Below are positions 16,521 to 64,000 of a DNA stretch of 64,000 nucleotides, in pieces. Numbering within the stretch: position 1 is the first letter of the stretch; each line of letters starts with the position of its first letter. This DNA comes from Chiloscyllium plagiosum. Its lineage: Eukaryota. The stretch covers positions 80,727,187-80,791,186 of the forward strand of contig NC_057718.1 of NCBI RefSeq assembly GCF_004010195.1, written 5' to 3'. A program made the position numbers and the translations under genes. The notes under the pieces were generated by a model. It ran no database searches. It saw nothing but the letters and a program-made list of their open reading frames with translations, and was not told the origin of the DNA.

Positions 16521-19500
16521 TGAGTCAGATTCATAGAAATGTACAGAACAGAAACAAACACTTCCGTCCAACCCGTCTTTGCCAACCAGATATCTTAGAT
16601 AAATCTAGCCCCATTTGCCAGCATTTGGACCATATCTCTCTCAACCCTTCCTGTTCATATACCCATCCAGATGCCTTTTAAATGTTGTAATTCTACCAGC
16701 CTCCACCACTTCCTCTGGCAGTTCATTCCATCCATGCACCACCATCTGCGTGAAAATGTTGTCCCTTAGGCCCCTTCCAAATCCTTCCCCTCTCACCTTA
16801 AATCTGTGCCCTCTAGTTTTGGACTCCCCCACCCAAAGAAAAATACCTTGTCTATTAACATATTCATGCCCCTCAAGATTTTATAAACTTCTACAACTCA
16901 CCCCTCAGCCTCTGACTCTCCAGGGAAAATAGCCCCAGCCTATTCAGCCTCTGCCTATATCTCAAATCCTCCAACCCTGGCATTATTCTTGCAGATCTTT
17001 TCTGAAACCTTTCAAGTTTCACAAAATCCTTTCCATGGCAGGGAGACCAGAATTGAACACAATATTCCAAAAATGGCCAAACAATGTCTTGTACAGCTGC
17101 AACATGACGTCCCAACCCAATGTTCTGGCAAAAAAGGCAAACATATCAAACACATTCTTCACTATCTTATGTTCCTGCAACTCCACTTTCAAGGAATTAT
17201 GAACCTACACTCCAAGGTCTCTTTGTTCAGCAACACTCCACAGGACCCCAAAGCATTAAGTGTATAAGTCCTGCCCTGATTTACCTTTCCAAAATGCAGC
17301 ACTTCACATTTATCTAAATTAAATTCCAGCTGCGACTCCTTGGTCTCTTGCCCCATCTGATCAAGATCCTGTAGTACTCTCAAGTAACCTTCTTCACTGG
17401 CCACTACACTTCCAATTTTGGTGTCATCTGCAAATGTATGGACCAGGCCTCCTATATTCACATTCAAATCATTTATATAAATGATGAAAAATAGTGGACC
17501 CAGCACCAATCTTTGTAGCACACCAGTGGATACAAGCCTCCAATCGAAAAATAACTCTTTACCACCCACTGCCTTCAAGCCAATTTTGTATGTAATTGGC
17601 TAGCTCCCCCAGATCCTATGTGATCTAATCTTACGAACCAGTTGACCATGCAGAAACCTGTTAAACACTTTGCTGAAGTCCTTATTGACAAAGTCTACCA
17701 CTCTGCCTTCATCAATTTTCTTTGTCACCTCTTCAAAAAACTCAGTCTTTAGTGAGATATGATTTCCTACGCTCAAAACCATATTGACTATCCCTAATTA
17801 ATTCTTGCCTTTCCAAATACATGTAAATCCTGTCCCTCAGAAATCCTTGCAACAACTTACCCTCCATTGACATAAGGCTCACTGGTCTATAGTTCCCTGA
17901 CTTTTTCCTACCACCTTTTTTAAATGAAGGCACCACATTAGCTAGCTTCCAGTCTTCGGCACCTCACCTGTGGCTGTCACTGTTACAACTATCTCAGCAA
18001 GGAGTCCAGCAATTTCCCCCCTAGCTTCCTACAGAGTTCTAGAGTACACCTGATCAGGTCCCGTGGATACATCCACCTTTATGCATTTTAAGATCTCCAT
18101 CACCTCCTGTTCTGTAATATGATTAGTTTTCAAGATTTCACTATTTATTTTCCTAATTTCCCCAACTTCCCAGCCCTTCTCCACAGTAAATGCTGTCACA
18201 AAAAAAATTATTTAGTATCTCACCCATCTCCTGTGGTTCCACACATCGAGGACAACATTGATCTTTAATGGGCCCTGTTCTCTCTCTAGTTACTCTTTAG
18301 TCCTTAATGTATTTGTAGAATCCCTTTGGATTCACCTTAATCCTATTTGCCAAAGCTATCTCATGTCCCCTTTTTGCCCTCCTGATTTCCCTCTTAAGTA
18401 TACTTCTAATCCCCTTATGTCCTCACGGGATTCACCCACTCACAGCTGTGTGTACCGGATAGATACAAAGAACAAAGAATATTTACAGCCTAGGAACAGG
18501 CCCTTTGGCCCTCCAAGCCTCAGCTGATCCAAATCCACTGTCTAAACCCAATTCCTAAGCATCTGTATCCCTCTGCTCCCCACCTACTCATGCATCTGTC
18601 CAGATGCACCTTAAGACATGCCTTCTTTTTCTTGACCAGAGTCTCCATTTCTCTAGTCAACCAGCAATCCGTACACCTACCAGGCTTGCCCTTTACACTA
18701 ACAGGAACATACTGTCTTGGGACTCTCATCTGATTTTCATAGGCCTCCCACTTCCCAACCGTTCCTTCGTTTGTGAATAGTGTCTCCCAATCAACTTTTG
18801 AAAGTTTCTGTCTAATACTTTCAAAATTCATCTTACTCCAATTTAGATCTTTAGCTTTTTCATCTGTTCTATCCTTTTCCATAACTATTTTAAATCGAAT
18901 GCAATTATGATCACTGGCTCCAAAGTGCTACCCATTGATACCTTGGTCATTTGCCCTGCCTTATTTCCCAAGAAAAGATCAAGTATTGCTCCTGCCCTAG
19001 TAGGTACATCCACCTAGTGATGAAGAAATGTTTCTTGTACACACTCAACAAATTTCTCCCCATCCAAACCCTTAACACTATGGCAGTTCCAGTCTATGTT
19101 CGGAAAGGGTTACAACCCTATTATTCTTATAGATATCTAAGATCTCCTTACATATTTGCTTCTCAATCTTGTACTGACTATTGGGGGGCCTATAATACCA
19201 TGCCAATAAGGTGAACATCCCTTTCTTATTTTTCAGTTCCACCCAAATAACTTCCCTCGACGATTCCCCAAGATTTTCCTCTCTACGTACAGCATAATGT
19301 TATGTCTAACTGTTACAAAGTTGAAAGAGTGTGCATTCACTTTAGGATAGAAAGTGTTTTCTGAATTTTAAAGTAAACTTAAAATACAGCCACAGCTGCC
19401 AGAACAGAACAGTTATGAGACGGGCTGTTCCAGAATAGATACATGTAGCAAATGGCTGTTAAATGGATATCTGAGTTTTGGTTGCTGTTTTGAAAACAAT

Positions 19501-19680
19501 TCAAATTTAATCAATTAATTTAAGTTATGCCCAGGACACTAAAACCCAACTGAGTTTGAATTTATTGTTTTGACAATATCGGACCAATGAGAGGGAATGA
19601 TACTGGGGGATTTAAAAAAGTAGTTGAAACTTTATTGCTGGAACAGCACAGCAGGTCAGGCAGCATCCAGGGAACAGGAG

Positions 19681-19716
19681 ATTCGACGTTTCGGGCACAG
19701 GCCCTTCTTCAGGAAT
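19681..19716 (-). ncRNA. Minimal type I hammerhead ribozyme motif in a Penelope pLTR
   Basis: Minus strand reads AUUC-CUGAAGA-A-GGGC(CUGU)GCCC-GAAA-CGUC-GAAU. Stem I AUUC/GAAU, 4-bp stem II, palindromic ACGU in place of stem III, GUC cleavage triplet. Confidence 0.75.
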
Positions 19717-19983
19717 GAGCAGAGAGTGTTCAGCAGGAGAAGATAAAAGGTAGGGAGGAGGGACTTGGAGGAGGGGCGTTGGAAATGTGATAGGTGGAAA
19801 GAGGTCAAGGTGAGGGTGATAGGTCGGAGTAGGATGGAGGCGGAGAGGTCAACAAGAAGACTGCAGGTCAGGAAGGCGACGTGGTCGACGGTGCCCTCCA
19901 CCGCATCTCCTCCACTTCCAACTCCCCTCCTCCAAGTCCCTCCTCCCTACCTTTTATCTTCTCCTGCTGAACACTCTCTGCTC

Positions 19984-20019
19984 ATTCCTGAAGAAGGGCA
20001 TGTGCCCGAAACGTCGAAT
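19984..20019 (+). ncRNA. Minimal type I hammerhead ribozyme motif in a Penelope pLTR, sense to PACRG
   Basis: AUUC-CUGAAGA-A-GGGC(AUGU)GCCC-GAAA-CGUC-GAAU. Predicted cut after C20015. Confidence 0.75.
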
Positions 20020-20059
20020 CTTCTGTTCCCTAGATGCTGCCTGACCTGCTGTGCTGTTC

Positions 20060-20168
20060 NNNNNNNNNNNNNNNNNNNNNNNNNNNNNNNNNNNNNNNNN
20101 NNNNNNNNNNNNNNNNNNNNNNNNNNNNNNNNNNNNNNNNNNNNNNNNNNNNNNNNNNNNNNNNNNNN
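20060..20168. other. Assembly gap (109 N)
   Basis: Run of n characters directly next to the pLTR inverted repeat. Confidence 1.
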
Positions 20169-23100
20169 GCGGAGGGAGTGGTCTCTACGGAAAGCTGATA
20201 GGGGAGGGGAGGGAAATATATCCTTGGTGCTGGGGTCTGTTTGGAGGTGGCGGAAGTGACGGCGGATGATGCGCTGTACATGGAGATTGGTGGGGTGGTA
20301 GGTTAATTAAAAAAGTAGGCATTTTGAAAATTGGTCAGAGCAACTGCCTCAGAGCTGGAGAGCTAACTGCCCATCTAAATTCTTGCTCTCAAAGAAATTT
20401 GAACACACTCTATATCAAAAGATATTTTTTCCTGTAAAACATACTCAGAATAAAAATAAAGAAGACCCAGGGAGTTCAGCAGACAGCAGATTGAAGACAG
20501 CAGAGAAGACAGAGAGTCTGTGGACTTGAGATTAAGTTAATGTAATGTTTAATAATTGTGTTATTGGAATAGCATGTTAATAGCATTGTGTTCAGTTAGA
20601 GGAAAGAGTGTGCAGTTTATTAATAGTTTTGTTTGGTGCTCTATTTGGAAAATAAATTGTTATTTTTCTTTAAACAGTGGAAATTAGGAGTTGTCTGTCA
20701 CTCACTCACATTTTAACAAATTATGAGGCGAGGCAAGCTTTTCGGAGTATTTGGTTTTAATTAACAGAGGGATACGACCTCCGCATCATAACAGTTTGGG
20801 AGTTCATCGTCCAGCTTTTGGACAGGTTTAAATGGACCTGGACAGACTTGGACAGGTTTGGGGTACAAAGGTTCCAGCAAATTTAAACATACTTGCCGAT
20901 TAGGTGTCCTAGATCTTTAAATAAAACTTAGGTAAGAAAAATCTGTTTAATTTTGGCTACTTGTAGTTGGTTAGATTAAAAGTGAGAGAAATAAAACTTT
21001 CAATTACTAAATGTTTTCTTGGGAGTGGAGGAAGTAACTTTGGGAATTTTACATAAGCTGAGCAGGAAAAAGCTACTGCAATTGGCAGACAATCTGGAAC
21101 TGGAATTGCCTGTGTCTCCAAAAATGAAGAGGTTATTTTGAAATAGCTCAACAATTAAATGTGTTGGAAAGGCTGTTAGAATCTTTGGAAATGGCTAAAA
21201 TGCAATTACAAATGAAGCAACTTGAGTTAGAAAGTACAGAAAGGGAGAAAGGATTCTTAGCTGAGCAAAGAGAGAGAGAAGAAAGAGGAAGAGAAGAAAA
21301 AGAACATGAGAGAAGGTTCTTAGCTGAACAAAAAGAAAGAGAAAATTTGAACTTCAGAATTTGTGAATTAATTAGGATGATCAAGTTACCGGAATGGAGT
21401 TGAAAGGAAAAGGTAGAAATGGATACAAATATGTGAAAACATTGCCGAATTTCAATGAGAAAGATGTTGTTGAAGCCTTTTTTATTTCTTTGAAAAATTA
21501 GCCAGGCAGATGGAATGGCCAGACACCTTGTGAATAATGCTCGTTCAGACAAAGCTGGTAGGCAGGGCTAATGGGGTATTTGCACTGCGATCAAATCAAG
21601 AGATTATGCAGATGTCAAACAGGCTATTTTGAGTGCCTATGAATTGGTACCATGGAACACTATGCTGCCAGTCTTGTCCATCCCTGAGCCATGTTTCTGT
21701 AATAGCTATAGTATCCCAATCCCATATTCCCAAGCATGCTCTATGGTCATCTGCCTTACCTGTCAGGCCTCTTGCCAAGCACCTGTCTGCCTTCGCTATT
21801 TGACTTGCTCCTCTTATCTATTGTACCAGCCTCAGCCTTTTCTCTTTCCTCACTATAGCTTTCGTTTGCACCCCACCTTTATTAGTGTAAAGCTTCACGA
21901 GTAGCACAGGAAAATTTCCTTTCAAGAGCCACATCCCTTTCCCTGCTTATGCCATTGGTGTCAAAATGGCTGGCACTGGAAAAGAACAGCAGGTCAGGCA
22001 ACATCCAAGGAACAGGAGAGCCAATGTTTCAGGAGTAAGCCCTTCATTCATTCACAACAATGTCCTGCTGGTCACTTTCCCCTTGCAGACCATTCTGCAC
22101 CTACACTGAGACATGCTGGCACCAGGAGGCAGCACACCATCCCGATGTTTTGCTCACGGCTGCAGAAGCATCTATGTTTGCCCAGACTGCACCTCAATTG
22201 CTTGGAACCTGAAATACCTGCTATTAAAGTAGAGCCAGTCATGGTACCAGAAACCTGGCTGTCAGTGCTATGTTCCTTTGAGAGGCCATTACTCCTTCTA
22301 GTATCCAAAATGGCATATCTGTTTCAGATGTGGACAGCCACAGGAGACTCCTATACTACCTGGCTGCCTCTCCTATTATTACTAGCAGTCAGCCATCTCC
22401 CTGACTGTATCTGCAAATTCTCCACCTTCCGAAAACTGCCATCTATCACACCCCCTAGCCCTTGTAAACTCTTCATTGCCTCTAACTGCCACTCGAACCA
22501 ATCCATGCAATCTGATAGGATTCACAACCAAACACACTTCCTATAGATATTGTCTTCCAGAGCATTCAAATTCTCCCTGATCTCCTATATCTGACAGGAA
22601 AAGCACATTATCCAACGAAGAGTCATTTCGGCCCTTTTAACAATCTACAGACCCAGAAATTACCTAAAAATGGAACACAGCACAACTAGCTCAAAAACAC
22701 AGCATTAGCACAGTCTTACTTGTCAAAAACACTGCTCTTGGATAATGTAATACCAATACTTAATATTAAAAGTAAATCAAGAGACAGATCTTAGTATAAA
22801 CAAAAAAATGCCTTCGCCTTACTCAATATTATAGATTTACAGAAGAAAAGGTTTAGAAGTTTTATACATCTTAAAATCAAATACTTAGCTCATCAGGCTC
22901 AAAAATCAAAGATCATCCTCTTCTCCTGTAGTTTCATGCAGTGATTCTTTTAAAAATCACCGATACCTCTGCAAGTGTGCATGAGGCTGGATGTTAGACC
23001 TCACATGTCAACGATGAAACTGCACTGCTTGTTTGTTATTTCAGTGCAACCTCAATCTCTAGAGTCTTTGTGCAATTTCTCTGTCTGACAGCTGTGAAAC

Positions 23101-30334: not shown

Positions 30335-31160
30335 TTCCAGTAAGATGGGGATGAAGTAGGGCTTCTGAAGGTGGGATCATCCACTCTATCCACTTGTCTT
30401 CTTGTTTCTTCCTTTTTTTCTCTCTGCTCTCTTTTTTTTCTCTTCTAATTTATTTTACTAACCTCTTGGTGAAGTGCTCAGTTACGGCAATTGCATCAGC
30501 AGCAGCAAGTGAGCCTAGCAGTGTGGACTCATTGGTGTGGCTTTGGGTTCCTGGTGGTGTCTGCTTCATGGAGGTGCTGGTAGAGGTGAATTTGGGCCTA
30601 GTACTAGAGTCAGTTATATCAGCAACGGCTGCATTGGCGAGGTGGGCCCAAAGTGAACTCATGGCATCAGTGAACTCAAATCTGGACAGTACCCAGTGGC
30701 ATGTGCATTGGCAAGGTCAAGCAAGGATTCATCGTAGTGAGGGCGTCAGTGGAGGCAAGATGGCACTGAAAAATTGCAACTTTTGTTGTGGTGGCAATGG
30801 CATGGCGAAGGGGACTTGTGCCTGGCCACCAGCCCCATGGGGAGAAAGTGAGGTCTGCAGATGCTGGAGATCAGAGCTGAAAATGGGTTGCTGGAAAAGC
30901 GCAGCAGGTCAGGCAGCATCCAGGGAACAGGAGAATCGACGTTTCGGGCATAAGCCCTTCTTCACCAGCCCCATGGCACATGATGGAGTATTTGACAAGA
31001 AGGACTGTAAAATTGGACTTTTTTTTATTTCTTCATTTTTCTGCCTTAAATTCTATGTTTTGGTTTATTTTCTGCGACAAACTACAGGACACCGTACAGT
31101 ATAAAAATTTCTACTGTATTTTGTAACAAGATACACATGGCAATAAATAAATCAAATAAA
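30335..31160 (+). mobile_element. Non-coding ~700-bp interspersed repeat, probably a non-autonomous non-LTR element, copy 1
   Basis: Colinear with the reverse complement of 44255-45008. Starts CTTCCAGTAAGATGG and ends caataaataaatcaaat. Confidence 0.6.
30841..30964 (-). mobile_element. Solo ~124-bp Penelope pLTR insertion truncated inside the hammerhead core
   Basis: TSD CACCAGCCCCATGG at 30827-30840 and 30963-30976. Minus strand TGAAGAAGGGCTTATGCCCGAAACGTCGA. Confidence 0.85.
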
Positions 31161-31740: not shown

Positions 31741-32584
31741 TATTGGTGGTAGATCTGAGCAGAAGAAGTAATAGTCACAACCAAGGTTTTAAATTTCATT
31801 AAAACAACCTTCAAAAAGATGGAAATCAAACCTTAATGAATTGAATGCCATTGTTATTGTGGTGCTTTCAAAACAACACTGGAATGCATTCAAAGAGGTA
31901 TTTGATAAAATACTGAAATGGCACAGTGACTAAAAGGCAAAGTTTCCACTTGTGTATTTGAACAATAATGCTCAATAAATGGGGAAAGAGGTAGTATCAA
32001 GTTTGTTCTGACTGGGATGGGAGGAGAGCACTGTCTTCCTCCAGTTCCACTATTCATTGGGCCTCAAAATGAATGTAATTGTTTCACCTGGTTCCTGATA
32101 TGACCAATTATGTGCTTTCTTTTTATTAGACTTAAAAGAATAAGATCCATCACACATTTCTTTAATAACACAAAATTAAGGATTTATTGTAAGACAAGGT
32201 TTACTGAATGATCATGCAAAACTGATCAACACACTAAGTTTGTAATATGATAATAAATGGTTACCCATCTTAATAACCCAAATACACACGCACTAGTTGA
32301 AAGGAAAAAAATGGATCTTTCTCTATACAAGAATTCACTTTGAGTTAAAAAACACTTTTGGGCAATTAGTCTTTGTTCTTGAAGACAAAAAGAATAAGAT
32401 TTGAAATGTTTATATGGCAATTAGTCCAATGTTCTGACATCTTTAAATAGGTGTCTATAAATATATATAGATCGCTCTGAGCTCTTTGCACATGCAGCTT
32501 AACAGGAAAAACAGAATTGACACTCTTCTCAAAGACAATAAGGTTTCAGATTGGTTTCACAGCAAAGGTTTTTCCAGAACTGTA

Positions 32585-32800
32585 GACCTGAAATAGGAAA
32601 TAAAAACAGAAAATGCTGGATAAACTCTGGCTGCATCTGGGAGAAAGAAACAATTAATATTTTGAATCTCATCATTCTTTTCGGTTCTTGAAGTTGAAAG
32701 GTTAACTCTGTTTCTCACTTCATATTGCCATACCTGTTGAGTTTCTCTAGCTTTTTCTATTTTTATTCTCAATTTCCAGCAGCTGCAGTTTTATGTTGTT
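32585..32800. mobile_element. Old fold-back Penelope pLTR element
   Basis: Inverted arms aaaacagaaaatgctggataaactc ... gagtttctctagctttttctattttt. Confidence 0.6.
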
Positions 32801-32839
32801 TTTATCTGAGCTGAAATGAGAAGCTTCCTTCTTTCAAGA

Positions 32840-33370
32840 CAAAAATAACTGCAGATAATGGAATCCAAGATAGATAATCAGGAGGCTGGAAGAACACAGC
32901 AAGCCAGGCAGCATCACGAGGTGCAGAAGTTGACGTTTCAGAAGTAACCCTTCTTCAGAACTGGGGATGGGTGTAAGGAGAGCTGCAGGTAAAAAGGCTT
33001 GCTGGGACAGGGTGGTGGTGGGGCTAGGTGAAGACAGGTAGAGGGTACGACCTGGTTGGTCAATAGGAGGAATGACTTCAATAGGTAGCTGGGAGGAGTG
33101 GAAAGGTGGGGGAGGGGGAGGGGGAGGGGCTGTGAAGGGAGTTGAGAAATGGGAGGGAGATTATTTGAAATTGGAGAACTCAATATTGAGTCCTCCAGGC
33201 TGTAGCCTGCCCAGACAGAAGATGAGGTGTTTTTCCTCCAAGTTGCGGTTTGGTGTGTTGTGGCAATGGAAGAGGTCAAGGATGGTCATGTCAGAAAGGG
33301 AGTGGGAAGGAGAATTAAAATGGGCGGTGACTGGGAGGTCCGGTCGCCACCAGTACGCCTGGCTTTCAGC
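32840..33370 (-). mobile_element. Penelope-like element 3' part: GIY-YIG endonuclease C-terminus plus pLTR with hammerhead motif (32928-32962)
   Basis: ORF 33161-33345 reads PDLPVTAHFNSPSHSLSDMTILDLFHCHN..EEKHLIFCLGRLQPGGLNIEFSNFK*. Downstream AGUU-CUGAAGA-A-GGG(UUACU)UCU-GAAA-CGUC-AACU. Confidence 0.85.
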
Positions 33371-33879: not shown

Positions 33880-34620
33880 TGTTAAATGTGAAAGATTACA
33901 AATTGTGGAAAAGCAAAAGAATCTGAATCGGGACATACAAACATCATTTAGAGCTATCGCACAGCTACAAAATATAATCACTAAATCTACATGAGCATTG
34001 GTCTTTAAACCAAAGATAAATCAAAGATATTCTGTGCTCCATGTATAAAACAAAGTAAAATAAAACAAAGAGGTGTGGTTGGTGGAGATCTGAAATAAAA
34101 ACAGAAATTTCTGGATAAACTCAGCAGGTCTAGCAGTATCTGTAGAGAGACAGCAGAGTTAACGTTTTGAGTCCAGTAATACTTCTTAAGATTCTTCAGA
34201 TTCTCTTGGCTGATGATACCAGACCTGATGAGTTTCTCCAGCAATTTCTGTTTTTGCTCCAGGTATTCAATGTTGGGTACAACACCTTAGAAAGAATATT
34301 ATTGTTTTTGTGGGAGTTTGAACAAAAATAAGAGGTTAAGAGGCGTAAGAGGTGAAATTATGTGAACAGATTGCAAGAATGTGGCTTGCATCCCCTTTAT
34401 TATAGGAAATTGAGGGATGATTTAACTATGGTGTTTCAAGTTATCAAGGGATTTGATAAAGTAGAAAATGAAATTCCTTTTCTGGTGAATCAGAACAAAT
34501 GGGCAAAACTTAAATAAGTTGAGTAAATTAGAGCTTGATGTCAACGAACTTTGACCAAATTGAATGATGAAAGAGGTTTGCGAGGCTGAATAGCCTACTC
34601 TTGTTCTAATGTTCCACTTC
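33880..34620 (+). mobile_element. Old CR1 3' fragment carrying a fold-back pLTR insertion (~34070-34258)
   Basis: CR1-like RT end and 3' UTR. Inserted arms aaaacagaaatttctggataaactcagcaggtct / agacctgatgagtttctccagcaatttctgtttt. Confidence 0.55.
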
Positions 34621-36102: not shown

Positions 36103-36274
36103 GTGGAGATTGAGAAATTAGACTATCATCATTATCTGCCTCTGTTCTTTGATGGTCTCTGTGATACAGCACACCCATATGACTTCTTTGCACGGCAGGG
36201 GATACATGACATGCTAGAACATGGTGGCATGAAGATTCTTCCAGTTATCCCTCAGCTAATCATCCCAATAAAAA
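36103..36274 (+). CDS. PACRG: PACRG (Parkin co-regulated gene) internal coding exon, 172 nt, probably equivalent to human exon 3
   Basis: Acceptor ttttctttcAG at 36101-36102 and donor GTaagg at 36275. Translates [57 protein letters not shown], which I recognise as vertebrate PACRG. Ends in phase 1. Confidence 0.97.
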
Positions 36275-45008: not shown

Positions 45009-45468
45009 ATGAACATCATATTTCATCTTTTTTCTCTGTTCTCATTAGTCTGTGCACCAATTTCATCCATGACTCAAAATAACCAAACTTATCACTCCTT
45101 TGGTGCCCACGCTTTCTTTACTGTCTTTGTCTAATTATATATCAATGTGCATATTTCTGATTCTCTTTTCTAATCCTCTGTATCTTTTGCTGTCTCATGT
45201 TGCTTTTCAGTTCTAAATCTAAAAATTGCAGCTGAGATTCCCCTTTGTATCTCTTTGCCATATTATTTTCTATGTGTCTGTACTTCTTTTTTAATTTGCT
45301 TGAAGGGCCCACTGTGGCCTGTCTGCACAACCAGAGCCACTCCAAAGGTTGAAGAAGCCAGAGATAAATGTTGACCTTTATGTCAGAAGTAACAGGACTT
45401 ACTCATCTGTGCCCACAAATAAGATCCCAAAACCCCACCAAAACCTCCTTGTGTCATTCACTTTCTGG

Positions 45469-45695
45469 AGAAAGTAAGGTCTGCAGATGCTGGAGATCAG
45501 AGCTGGAAATGTGTTGCTGGAAAAGCGCAGCAGGTCAGGCAGCATCCAGGGAACAGGAGAATCAACGTTTCGGGCATAAGCCCTTCTTCCTTTCGGGCAT
45601 AAGCCCTGAAGAAGGGCTTATGCTCGAAACGTCGATTCTCCTGTTCCCTGGATGCTGCCTGACCTGCTGCGCTTTTCCAGCAACACATTTCCAGC
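45469..45695. mobile_element. Fold-back (palindromic) Penelope pLTR mini-element centred on hammerhead motifs
   Basis: TSD TCATTCACTTTCTGG at 45454-45468 and 45696-45710. About 90-bp near-perfect inverted arms. Core CTGAAGAAGGGCTTATGCTCGAAACGTC at 45606-45633. Confidence 0.9.
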
Positions 45696-45879
45696 TCATT
45701 CACTTTCTGGTTGGGAGCTGCCTCCAGGCCACCTGACTGCCAGTAGTCTGTCAACCATTTACCCTTCAAAATCTGACATGCTTGCATATGTGGGAAAAAG
45801 CAAAATCTGCAGGGAGGAGGAATGGACTGACCAGGGTACTTTGGTTCAAGACACCTTTCAAGTAGGGAGAGTATAAAGG

Positions 45880-50231: not shown

Positions 50232-50381
50232 ATGCGCTCAACACTCGGAACAAGCAAATCATTTGCACCACATTGAAAGTGCTCCAGCACCTGGTTGTGT
50301 CAGCTGATATGGTGGGTGAGGCCCTGGTACCTTATTACCGTCAAATCCTCCCTGTCTTGAATATCTTCAAGAATGTAAATG
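50232..50381 (+). CDS. PACRG: PACRG next coding exon, 150 nt, probably equivalent to human exon 4
   Basis: Pyrimidine tract plus tgcAG at 50230-50231 and donor GTaagt at 50382. Joined in phase 1 to the previous exon it reads (N)[49 protein letters not shown]. Not present in the ORF track. Confidence 0.97.
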
Positions 50382-61963: not shown

Positions 61964-62865
61964 TTAAAAATCACACAACACCAGGTTATAGTCCAACGGG
62001 TTTAATTGGAAGCACACTGGCTTTCGGGGGGTCGCTCCTTCATCAGGTGGTAGTGGAGGGCTCAATCCTAACACAGAATTTATAGCAAAAATTTACATTG
62101 TGATGTAACTGAAAATATACATTGAAAAATTGATTGTCTGTTGAGTCTGTTTGAATACCATGATAGTTTCACTTCTTTCATATGTAAATCACAAAACCCT
62201 TTTTTTGAAAGTTGCATTCTCAGGTTAGCTGTTAACAATGGGTGATGGCTAGACAATATGTTGAAGCTGTTAGCCCCTTGTGTTCTCTGTCTATGCCATG
62301 ATGTTTGGATTGATTCTAATCTAAAAAGTGAGATAACGGAGTTTTACATGAATTCATGCAGTTTTTGAGCAAAGTACAATGTAACTCTGCAAGTACAAAT
62401 TCACCCCACAAAATATATGTGTGCATGTGGGTCTTTGTCTGTCTGTGTGTGTGTCTGTCTGGGTTGGGGGTTGTGAGTGTGAAAACGTGTATGTGTGTGT
62501 GTAGTGAGTGTCGAGTGTCTTAAGTCTGTGAGGGGGTGCATGTGTGAGTGTGGGAGTGTGTGTATGTAAGGGTGTGTGTGGGTATCTGTGTGCGCGTCTG
62601 TGTATATGTGCGCACGTGTGTATGTGTGTATAGGAGTGTGTGTGTGTGTGTGTAGGAGTGTCTCTGTGTGTGTATAGTGCAATGCTAGTCACCTGTAATG
62701 TGACATGAACCTAAGGTCCAGGTTGAGGCCCTCCCTATGGATACCGAACTTAGCTATCAGCCTCTTTTCGTTGCTGCCTTTCCCGAAGTCCGCCTTAGAG
62801 GATGGTCATTTGAAGGTCCCAGGTCGAATGTCCTGGACCACTGAAGTGTTCCCCAACTGTGAGGG
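61964..62865 (-). mobile_element. Penelope-like element of a different family: GIY-YIG C-terminus, (CA)n-rich UTR, pLTR with mutated hammerhead (62015-62049)
   Basis: TSD ATTTGGAG at 61956-61963 and 62866-62873. Minus strand VGEHFSGPGHSTWDLQMTIL*GG..LIAKFGIHREGLNLDLRFMSHYR*. Motif CAC-CUGAUGA-A-GGAGCGACCCCCC-GAAA-GCCA-GUG. Confidence 0.85.
62417..62675. repeat. Imperfect (TG)n simple repeat inside the Penelope UTR
   Basis: Direct dinucleotide-rich tract. Confidence 0.9.
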
Positions 62866-64000
62866 ATTTGGAGAGGATACAATGTGGTAGTCTTATCATG
62901 CATTTGTTGAATAATCAGATTTGGAGGTAACAAAAGCTTGGATGAGGACTTAGCATCAGAAAAGCTGAGGCAGTGACTTACAATGTTACAGAGGTCAAAA
63001 TATGGCAGGAATATGTGCTTGAAAGCTCATCTCAGGGTCAGAAAATGATACTGATGATGTGAACAAGCTAGTTCAGCACCAAGACAGCTGCTAAGGATTG
63101 GAATGAAATTGATGGCAAGGGTATAGAGTTTCTGTTAGAGATGAAAGTCAATGGTTTCAATTTCCCAAATATTTAATTGGAGGAAATTTATACACTGGAT
63201 GCCTGTAAGTTTGTCAGTTTGGAGACACTGAAGCAGCTGAGACAGGTTAGAGTTACATTTTATAGGTATTCATGTAGAAATTGACATTCTGCTTTCAGGT
63301 GATGTTGCCAAGGGGCAGCATGTAGCTGAGAAATTGAAGTAGATCCTTGAGGGACATCAGAGGTAACTACAGGACTGAGATCCAAAGTCATTGATGCCAA
63401 TTCTTTGGTTATGCTAAGAATAACATTGAATGTCATCCTACTCTATTGATAACAGTGGAGCGGCGTTGGAGGAGAATGCTGTGATCAGCAATATCAAAGG
63501 CTGTACATAGTTTGGGTATGACAGAGGGGGCAATTTGCTTTTGTCATTGTCACATAGAATGACAATTTAACCTTTGGTAAGAGTTGTTACAACATGTTGC
63601 AGGAGTGGAAATCTCACTGAAAGGATTTAAACCTAGAGCTCCAGGAAAGATAGTCATTGGTAGGTAGTCATGCATTCAGTCAGAAATTGGATCATCAACC
63701 AATTTTTCTTTTCCCTCGCCCAGAGTATTAAATCCAGCCATAGGAGCTCAAGTGCAGTTAAGAGCCCAGCAAATTCCTGGAAATCAGGTTTTAAGACAGT
63801 TTGAAACGAGAGACAGGCTTTAGCTGAGCCTGAACCTGCTTAATGTCTGTTGCAATGCTAAAAACGTGTCTGTAAAAAGAGTTCAGAGCTATATAATTAA
63901 AGCTGTACAAAAACCAAATGCTTCAGTCATGTGACAGGTCTCTTGGATGAAGCAATTCAACCTGTTTCTCATCAAAGCTTTTGTGTATTATACAAGATAA

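Follow-up and report, generated by a model that had tools for sequence, protein, structure and literature searches.

Can two hammerhead ribozyme motifs that face each other on opposite strands cut the host transcript to which one of them may belong, or does their inverted arrangement keep both from folding? This question is raised by a locus of the shark Chiloscyllium plagiosum, which we analysed within a 64,000-nucleotide stretch of contig NC_057718.1 (hereafter the window). A sequence-only reading had described the locus as an inverted pair of Penelope terminal repeats inside an intron of PACRG, each arm with an intact minimal hammerhead, and had proposed that the antisense copy silences the sense copy by trapping it in double-stranded RNA. 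Our results make it likely that these are twin minimal hammerheads in one Penelope insertion, predicted to be locked by a hairpin, and that the PACRG pre-mRNA is not cut there.

One complex Penelope insertion

The two 36-nt motifs were found as claimed, at 19984-20019 on the plus strand and 19681-19716 on the minus strand. They lie in a head-to-head inverted repeat of 147 bp (19641-19787 and 19913-20059; 142/147 positions, or 97%, identical) with a spacer of 125 nt. Both arms lie between the two copies of a 12-nt direct repeat, together with an assembly gap and a further 138 nt past the gap, so that the parts follow one another as duplication, copy A (minus), copy B (plus), gap, piece C (minus) and duplication (Table 1). 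As a control for the duplication, 12 nt were shared by 11 of 4969 random window pairs. Since the duplication encloses the arms, the gap and the open reading frame (ORF) piece alike, these are the parts of one complex Penelope insertion.

Table 1 Coordinates of the insertion, its hammerhead motifs and the downstream PACRG exons in the window.
Feature	Position	Strand	Remarks
Left target-site duplication	19612..19623	+	12 nt, AT-rich; exact repeat of 20307-20318, with no other occurrence in the window
Copy A, 5'-truncated Penelope 3' end (part of the terminal repeat, hammerhead, and downstream end abutting the left duplication)	19624..19880	-
Minimal hammerhead of copy A	19681..19716	-	Loop II CUGU; predicted cut after C19685; model R1 45.2 bits
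Short Penelope ORF piece, opens copy B	19877..19919	+	14 codons; translation matches P0016 and P0002 by eye
Copy B arm, cut by the assembly gap	19913..20059	+	Inverted twin of 19641-19787, 142/147 identical
Minimal hammerhead of copy B	19984..20019	+	Loop II AUGU; predicted cut after C20015; model R1 44.6 bits; sense to PACRG
Assembly gap inside the insertion	20060..20168	.	Run of 109 N
Piece C, Penelope ORF between the RT and GIY-YIG domains	20169..20306	-	46 open codons; 5'-truncated at the right duplication
Right target-site duplication	20307..20318	+	12-nt direct repeat
PACRG exon, first exon downstream of the insertion	36103..36274	+	Residues 98-154 of the 257-aa protein; Pfam ParcG E 4.9e-24; PDB sequences; AG/GT ends
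Next PACRG exon	50232..50381	+	Pfam ParcG E 3.7e-18; splice ends

The ORF piece that opens copy B was too short for tblastn at 14 codons. It shares 4 nt with the start of copy A, then jumps into the terminal repeat via a short shared sequence; in other copies of the family, the ORF extends beyond this piece on both sides. For piece C, 20 relatives were found among 23 candidates, the best of them 87% identical and carrying the source label Chiloscyllium punctatum. Six relatives were scanned for domains, with a C-terminal GIY-YIG domain in three (one above the Pfam cut-off) and RVT_1 in two (one above). Judged from these sequences, the domain order of the relatives is that of Penelope. The combination of a reverse transcriptase (RT) with a C-terminal GIY-YIG domain was thus found through the relatives of piece C, neither domain being visible at the locus, and the locus itself has two other features of endonuclease-bearing Penelope elements, namely the 12-nt duplication round the whole unit and, as assembled, 5'-truncated copies joined head to head. 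The ORF pieces and the target-site duplication support the Penelope origin proposed by the sequence-only reading.

The target of the insertion is itself a repeat (about 19310-21650), in which an LTR-like stretch precedes a coiled-coil and gag-like frame with a frameshift. We take this repeat to be Gypsy-like; searches of Pfam and the Atlas gave no identification for it (best Atlas score 0.87).

We placed three independent DNA contig sets (21,660, 34,189 and 13,057 contigs) and one RNA run (1087 reads) on the insertion. The family is very abundant. At the left junction, two runs each had a matching contig (0 and 1 differences) at low depth (25 and 17), with 21-22 element bases, which is short of our 31-base rule for bridging. 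A paralogous flank that is uninterrupted, found in three of the four runs, joins both sides of the insertion with 33 letters against 32 expected, which supports a single insertion and ties the two sides of the gap together. Arm-to-arm fold-backs made up 13 of the 15 contig joints listed (300 in all), and we read these joints as head-to-head insertions at other loci. In run X1, one contig joins 19684 to 19622 with 7 letters between, so that the 3' end of the element is joined to the base just past the predicted cut site; it is a single row of 349 and possibly due to chance.

These observations bear on an alternative that we consider unlikely, in which copy B is an assembly chimera and the locus really holds one 5'-truncated Penelope copy on the minus strand, running from C into A. 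The inverted arm would then have been walked in from another locus beside the gap, and there would be no sense hammerhead in the PACRG pre-mRNA. Copy B does end at the N gap, which sets in 40 nt past the plus-strand motif and interrupts the arm there, and without B, pieces C and A would make up an ordinary truncated insertion flanked by the duplications. The high copy number of the family (13,057-34,189 contigs per run) also favours a chimera, as do the assembly problems noted at such structures in PMC8557442, and among the matches listed (24 of about 70,000), none crosses either the A/B junction or the gap. Nonetheless, both arms carry the same subfamily letters (stem I GAAU, loop II xUGU) although 5 positions distinguish them, and short matching sequences typical of template switching stand at both junctions. 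Gap-free head-to-head pairs also occur elsewhere in the window, one of them with a 15-bp duplication, and a passage from C to A would need about 165 codons plus untranslated sequence (an estimate from P0003), which is more than B and the gap together. Of the two readings, we hold one insertion with both arms to be the more probable.

With regard to the host gene, the insertion lies 16 kb upstream of the internal PACRG exon at 36103-36274, to which one tblastn homologue is 98% identical. The upstream PACRG exons (first 87 residues) were not found in the window by tblastn with 8 of 150 listed homologues. Of the earlier statement that the motifs lie inside a PACRG intron, the downstream exons on the plus strand hold, and the intron position itself is an extrapolation to upstream exons outside the window. 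On this exon evidence, the insertion is intronic if PACRG continues beyond the window, as it likely does; copy B would then be sense to the PACRG pre-mRNA and would presumably be transcribed as part of it. The RNA run is poly(A) single-cell data, of which about 2/100 was covered, and it is uninformative on the locus or on cleavage: read ends showed no pile-up in this portion, 93% of the 1087 reads continue into other loci, and the family reads come from both strands.

Motif anatomy and stem covariation

Both motifs have the hammerhead anatomy given by the sequence-only reading, including the core CUGAAGA / GAAA / GUC, one extra A ahead of stem II and an ACGU palindrome that replaces stem III. 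Specifically, each consists of stem I (AUUC:GAAU), CUGAAGA, the extra A and stem II (GGGC:GCCC), next GAAACGUC. The loops that had been called different differ by a single base at the first position of loop II (AUGU vs CUGU), and the rest of the motifs is identical. Because they are twins within one inverted repeat, the two motifs are one observation and not two independent ones. The hammerhead core pattern matched four times in the window against 0.01 expected, and four matches were reached in none of 100 shuffles. When isolated, the 46-nt motifs are no more stably folded than shuffled sequences (z -0.2 and -0.1), so folding energy is not evidence for the motif.

An Rfam search of the window returned nothing at the gathering score and no hammerhead among 14 weak matches. 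Such an outcome is expected where helix III is absent, and the locus does not belong to the canonical type I hammerheads in which helix III is present. Rfam matches to microRNA and snoRNA models were rejected (25-107 bits under threshold), those to microRNAs reflecting merely a long stem. The motifs agree with the minimal hammerheads of metazoan Penelope-like elements (PLEs) in their CUGANGA and GAAA boxes and UH cleavage site, in the extra base between 9 and 10.1 together with the G10.1-C11.1 pair, and in the absence of helix III with a palindromic 15.1-16.1 (ACGU). They also have a short helix I (4-5 bp) and a helix II, both of which covary across families, and a terminal-repeat position with ORF pieces inside the same duplication-bounded unit.

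Covariation of the stems was one of the tests that the sequence-only reading had named. We scanned metagenomes with 18 fixed bases and took 120 loci from about 6200 estimated, which gave 109 distinct motifs. At unfixed positions, a stem I of at least 3 bp was present in 64 of the 109 motifs, compared with 9.5 +/- 2.8 after shuffling (maximum 19 in 2000) and 1-14 in slid controls. Pair 3 of stem II was kept in 98/109 and pair 4 in 94/109 motifs, and at position 17, 103/109 motifs had C, U or A. Among 33 motifs of similar length, changes on both sides of a pair filled 66 cells against 23.3 in shuffles, a number that 0/500 shuffles reached and that relatedness inflates. Both the stem I pairing (64/109) and the two-sided changes (66 vs 23.3) thus point to covariation across families. 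A covariance model (R1) built on these 33 motifs gave 19 matches, of which our two motifs scored highest (45.2 and 44.6 bits), partly by construction. We note that the R1 scores are partly circular, the loci having been fetched by a pattern from these very motifs, and that the unfixed stem positions alone are independent.

Within the shark family, a base that breaks pair 3 of stem I (the majority letter at 19682) takes up ~70% of the depth in two DNA runs and 64% in the third, and no compensating change of its partner was seen among 40 of the 104 rows listed. Stem I of both motifs is better than in most sibling copies of the family. The window also holds an older Penelope end of another family (32831-33346, minus strand), in which a C-terminal GIY-YIG piece (about 60% to P0003) is followed by a hammerhead. 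In the hammerhead at 32958, stem I differs from that of the 19984 and 19681 motifs by two compensated pairs.

Predicted trapping of both motifs in a hairpin

A region of 460 nt around the arms folds at -343 kcal/mol (z -28), and forcing the hammerhead fold costs 60.4 kcal/mol for the plus motif and 61.0 kcal/mol for the minus motif, values from equilibrium folding that ignore RNA-binding proteins and A-to-I editing. In growing transcripts, the newest bases pair with the arm in 6/6 prefixes tested. The proposal that the antisense twin traps the plus copy in double-stranded RNA is thereby borne out in folding (-343 kcal/mol, with ~60 kcal/mol to free the motif). The models also predict the trapping to be symmetric, with the minus copy locked as much as the plus copy. 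Of the further proposal, that the inverted layout silences itself, the predicted trapping stands, but it affects both strands and would act on a lone motif that is likely inactive anyway.

By analogy with known motifs, a lone motif would likely be inactive regardless of trapping, lacking a partner or the protein of the element. The motif probably does not owe its harmlessness to trapping: single motifs are reported without cleavage (PMC4209133) and the anole hammerhead depends on protein (PMC11167929). Trapping is probably a by-product of the insertion and not an evolved switch.

A double hammerhead can be drawn through ACGU, with computed energies of -14.5 (copy B) and -13.1 kcal/mol, and even without arm A the probability that stem I forms is still 0.03-0.04. 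A private loop base of copy B renders its stem II almost palindromic (19996-20007), and the prediction for two B copies is therefore an inactive duplex of stem II (-26.4 kcal/mol) in preference to the double hammerhead (-14.5 kcal/mol). The remaining plus-strand cores in the window (11526 and 45606) are damaged.

The following course of events would account for the locus. The RT of the element would copy its RNA starting at the end downstream of the ribozyme, stop early and switch template at the short matching sequences of both internal junctions; the head-to-head layout would likely have arisen in this way, during reverse transcription. In the parent element, cleavage would take place in a double hammerhead joined via the ACGU palindrome, probably with the help of the element's protein. 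At the locus, the motif would lack a free partner on its own strand, and the antisense arm would be transcribed first on either strand, so that the pair is probably an inert passenger.

It is very improbable, in our view, that the sense motif sometimes frees itself from the hairpin and cleaves the PACRG intron through trans pairing with family RNA or with the help of Penelope protein. Its core is perfect, its stem I surpasses that of most family copies, family reads lie on both strands in the RNA run (1087 reads), and dimers and protein-assisted motifs do cleave (PMC4209133, PMC11167929); these points have to be set against the penalty of 60 kcal/mol, the stem I probability of 0.03-0.04 even without arm A, and the inactive duplex (-26.4) that outdoes the double hammerhead (-14.5) for copy B. 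Moreover, anole RNA-seq is reported to have had no reads that start or end at the cut site (PMC11167929). We give just as little credence to a function of the hairpin itself, in which editing or dicing of a long intronic double-stranded RNA would contribute to silencing of the family, given that its near-perfect 147-bp stem and the rotifer small RNAs against Penelope families (PMC3846280) are offset by an argument that applies equally to any of many inverted copies and by Rfam microRNA matches far below threshold that only reflect the long stem.

Published counterparts and frequency of the layout

Minimal hammerheads in Penelope ends, opposite-strand pairs of them and head-to-head inversion are all already published. 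Cervera and De la Pena 2014 (PMC4209133) reported that a lone minimal motif showed no cleavage and that dimers and trimers cleave at a low level, and described motif pairs about 100-700 bp apart on opposite strands in metazoan Penelope-like elements; the dimer model of cleavage is reviewed in PMC6765202. The shark motifs share with these minimal hammerheads the core boxes, the short helix I, the extra base between 9 and 10.1, G10.1-C11.1, the palindromic 15.2-16.2 without helix III and the terminal-repeat location. They differ in helix II, which is 4 bp in this shark-type family and 7-8 bp in the Schistosoma families. Cartilaginous fish are not named in the parts of PMC4209133 covered, and its supplements may list one.

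A head-to-head inversion within one duplication is given as the most frequent arrangement in PMC3846280, where it is ascribed to self-priming, and the same inverted form of insertion is described in PMC8557442 and PMC2377424. Our locus shares with the endonuclease-bearing Penelope insertions of these three sources an inverted 5'-truncated copy joined at its 5' end, one target-site duplication around the unit, an internal deletion at microhomology and trouble in assembly. In contrast to them, it shows no full ORF, and a third piece, C, faces the pair across the gap. In the anole element PAc (Poseidon, Anolis carolinensis; PMC11167929), the hammerhead cleaves only with the protein of the element and is dispensable for insertion in vitro, and the RNA-seq of that source has no read ends at the cut site. 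PAc and the shark element both have stems I and II only, near the 3' end of the insertion, and an AT-rich target, whereas protein-assisted cleavage was shown in vitro for PAc and is putative for the shark element. Non-LTR retrozymes (bioRxiv 10.64898/2026.07.22.740005) are likewise hammerhead-bearing, Penelope-related and present in a cartilaginous fish, but they are direct tandem units with a hammerhead each, while the shark locus is an inverted pair with ORF pieces. We rejected retrozyme identity for the locus, as no direct repeat of the motif lies nearby outside the N gap, apart from a decayed solo copy. A narrow literature search found no report of an inverted repeat that silences an intronic hammerhead.

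The layout is a common, ordinary form of Penelope insertion, and the locus is another example of the published kind. A second motif on the opposite strand within 300 nt was found at 11 of the 120 metagenome loci, against 0.63 in shuffled flanks; all 11 pairs are head to head and 9/11 have a detectable inverted repeat. Second copies on the same strand were found 2 times among the 120 loci. Nine loci in the window have such ends, comprising four clear head-to-head pairs (at 19.6, 32.6, 34.1 and 45.5 kb), two with short antisense stubs and three solo copies.

The pair at 45454-45710 belongs to the same family, is gap-free, has a 15-bp duplication and lies in the next PACRG intron; in both of its motifs the 5' side of stem I is missing, and its centre holds an additional antisense piece of 16 nt. 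Two other head-to-head pairs (32576-32797 and 34059-34269) are of a more distant, decayed family. A solo minus-strand copy of 122 nt at 30827-30976, with a 14-bp duplication, begins at U4 of the core; as its sequence reads, without C3 and stem I, it is a dead ribozyme stub.

Taken as it stands, the locus matters little, being one of very many Penelope end-pieces with a published layout, although it offers a clean motif pair for testing whether a fold-back blocks a minimal hammerhead. We regard it as doubtful that fold-back insertion lets intact sense hammerheads persist in host introns while free sense copies are purged by trans cutting. In the window, all six PACRG-sense copies have an antisense piece upstream (four clear, two weak), and the three solo copies are all antisense (chance 1 in 8), which are too few to show an orientation bias. 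If sense-strand intronic hammerheads were to survive mainly when locked in hairpins, this would be indirect evidence that they cut host RNA in vivo.

Five short sibling copies (30964, 45589, 45607, 22050 and 11522) start at the 5' edge of the hammerhead and not at the cut site, and 12 of the 13 fold-back joints listed restart at 19981-19993. The letters TCATTCC at 19982-19988 fit the vertebrate initiator consensus. Together, these starts, restarts and letters suggest a possible start of the template RNA at this edge. In the metagenome families, 5' ends are spread roughly 0-300 nt upstream, with no pile-up at the ribozyme edge. A weak GIY-YIG-like remnant (best E 0.009) lies on the minus strand of the window at 62762-62878. 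Two metagenome motifs on one 6-kb contig (L024 and L025) stand head to head about 2.5 kb apart and may flank a longer inverted Penelope unit.
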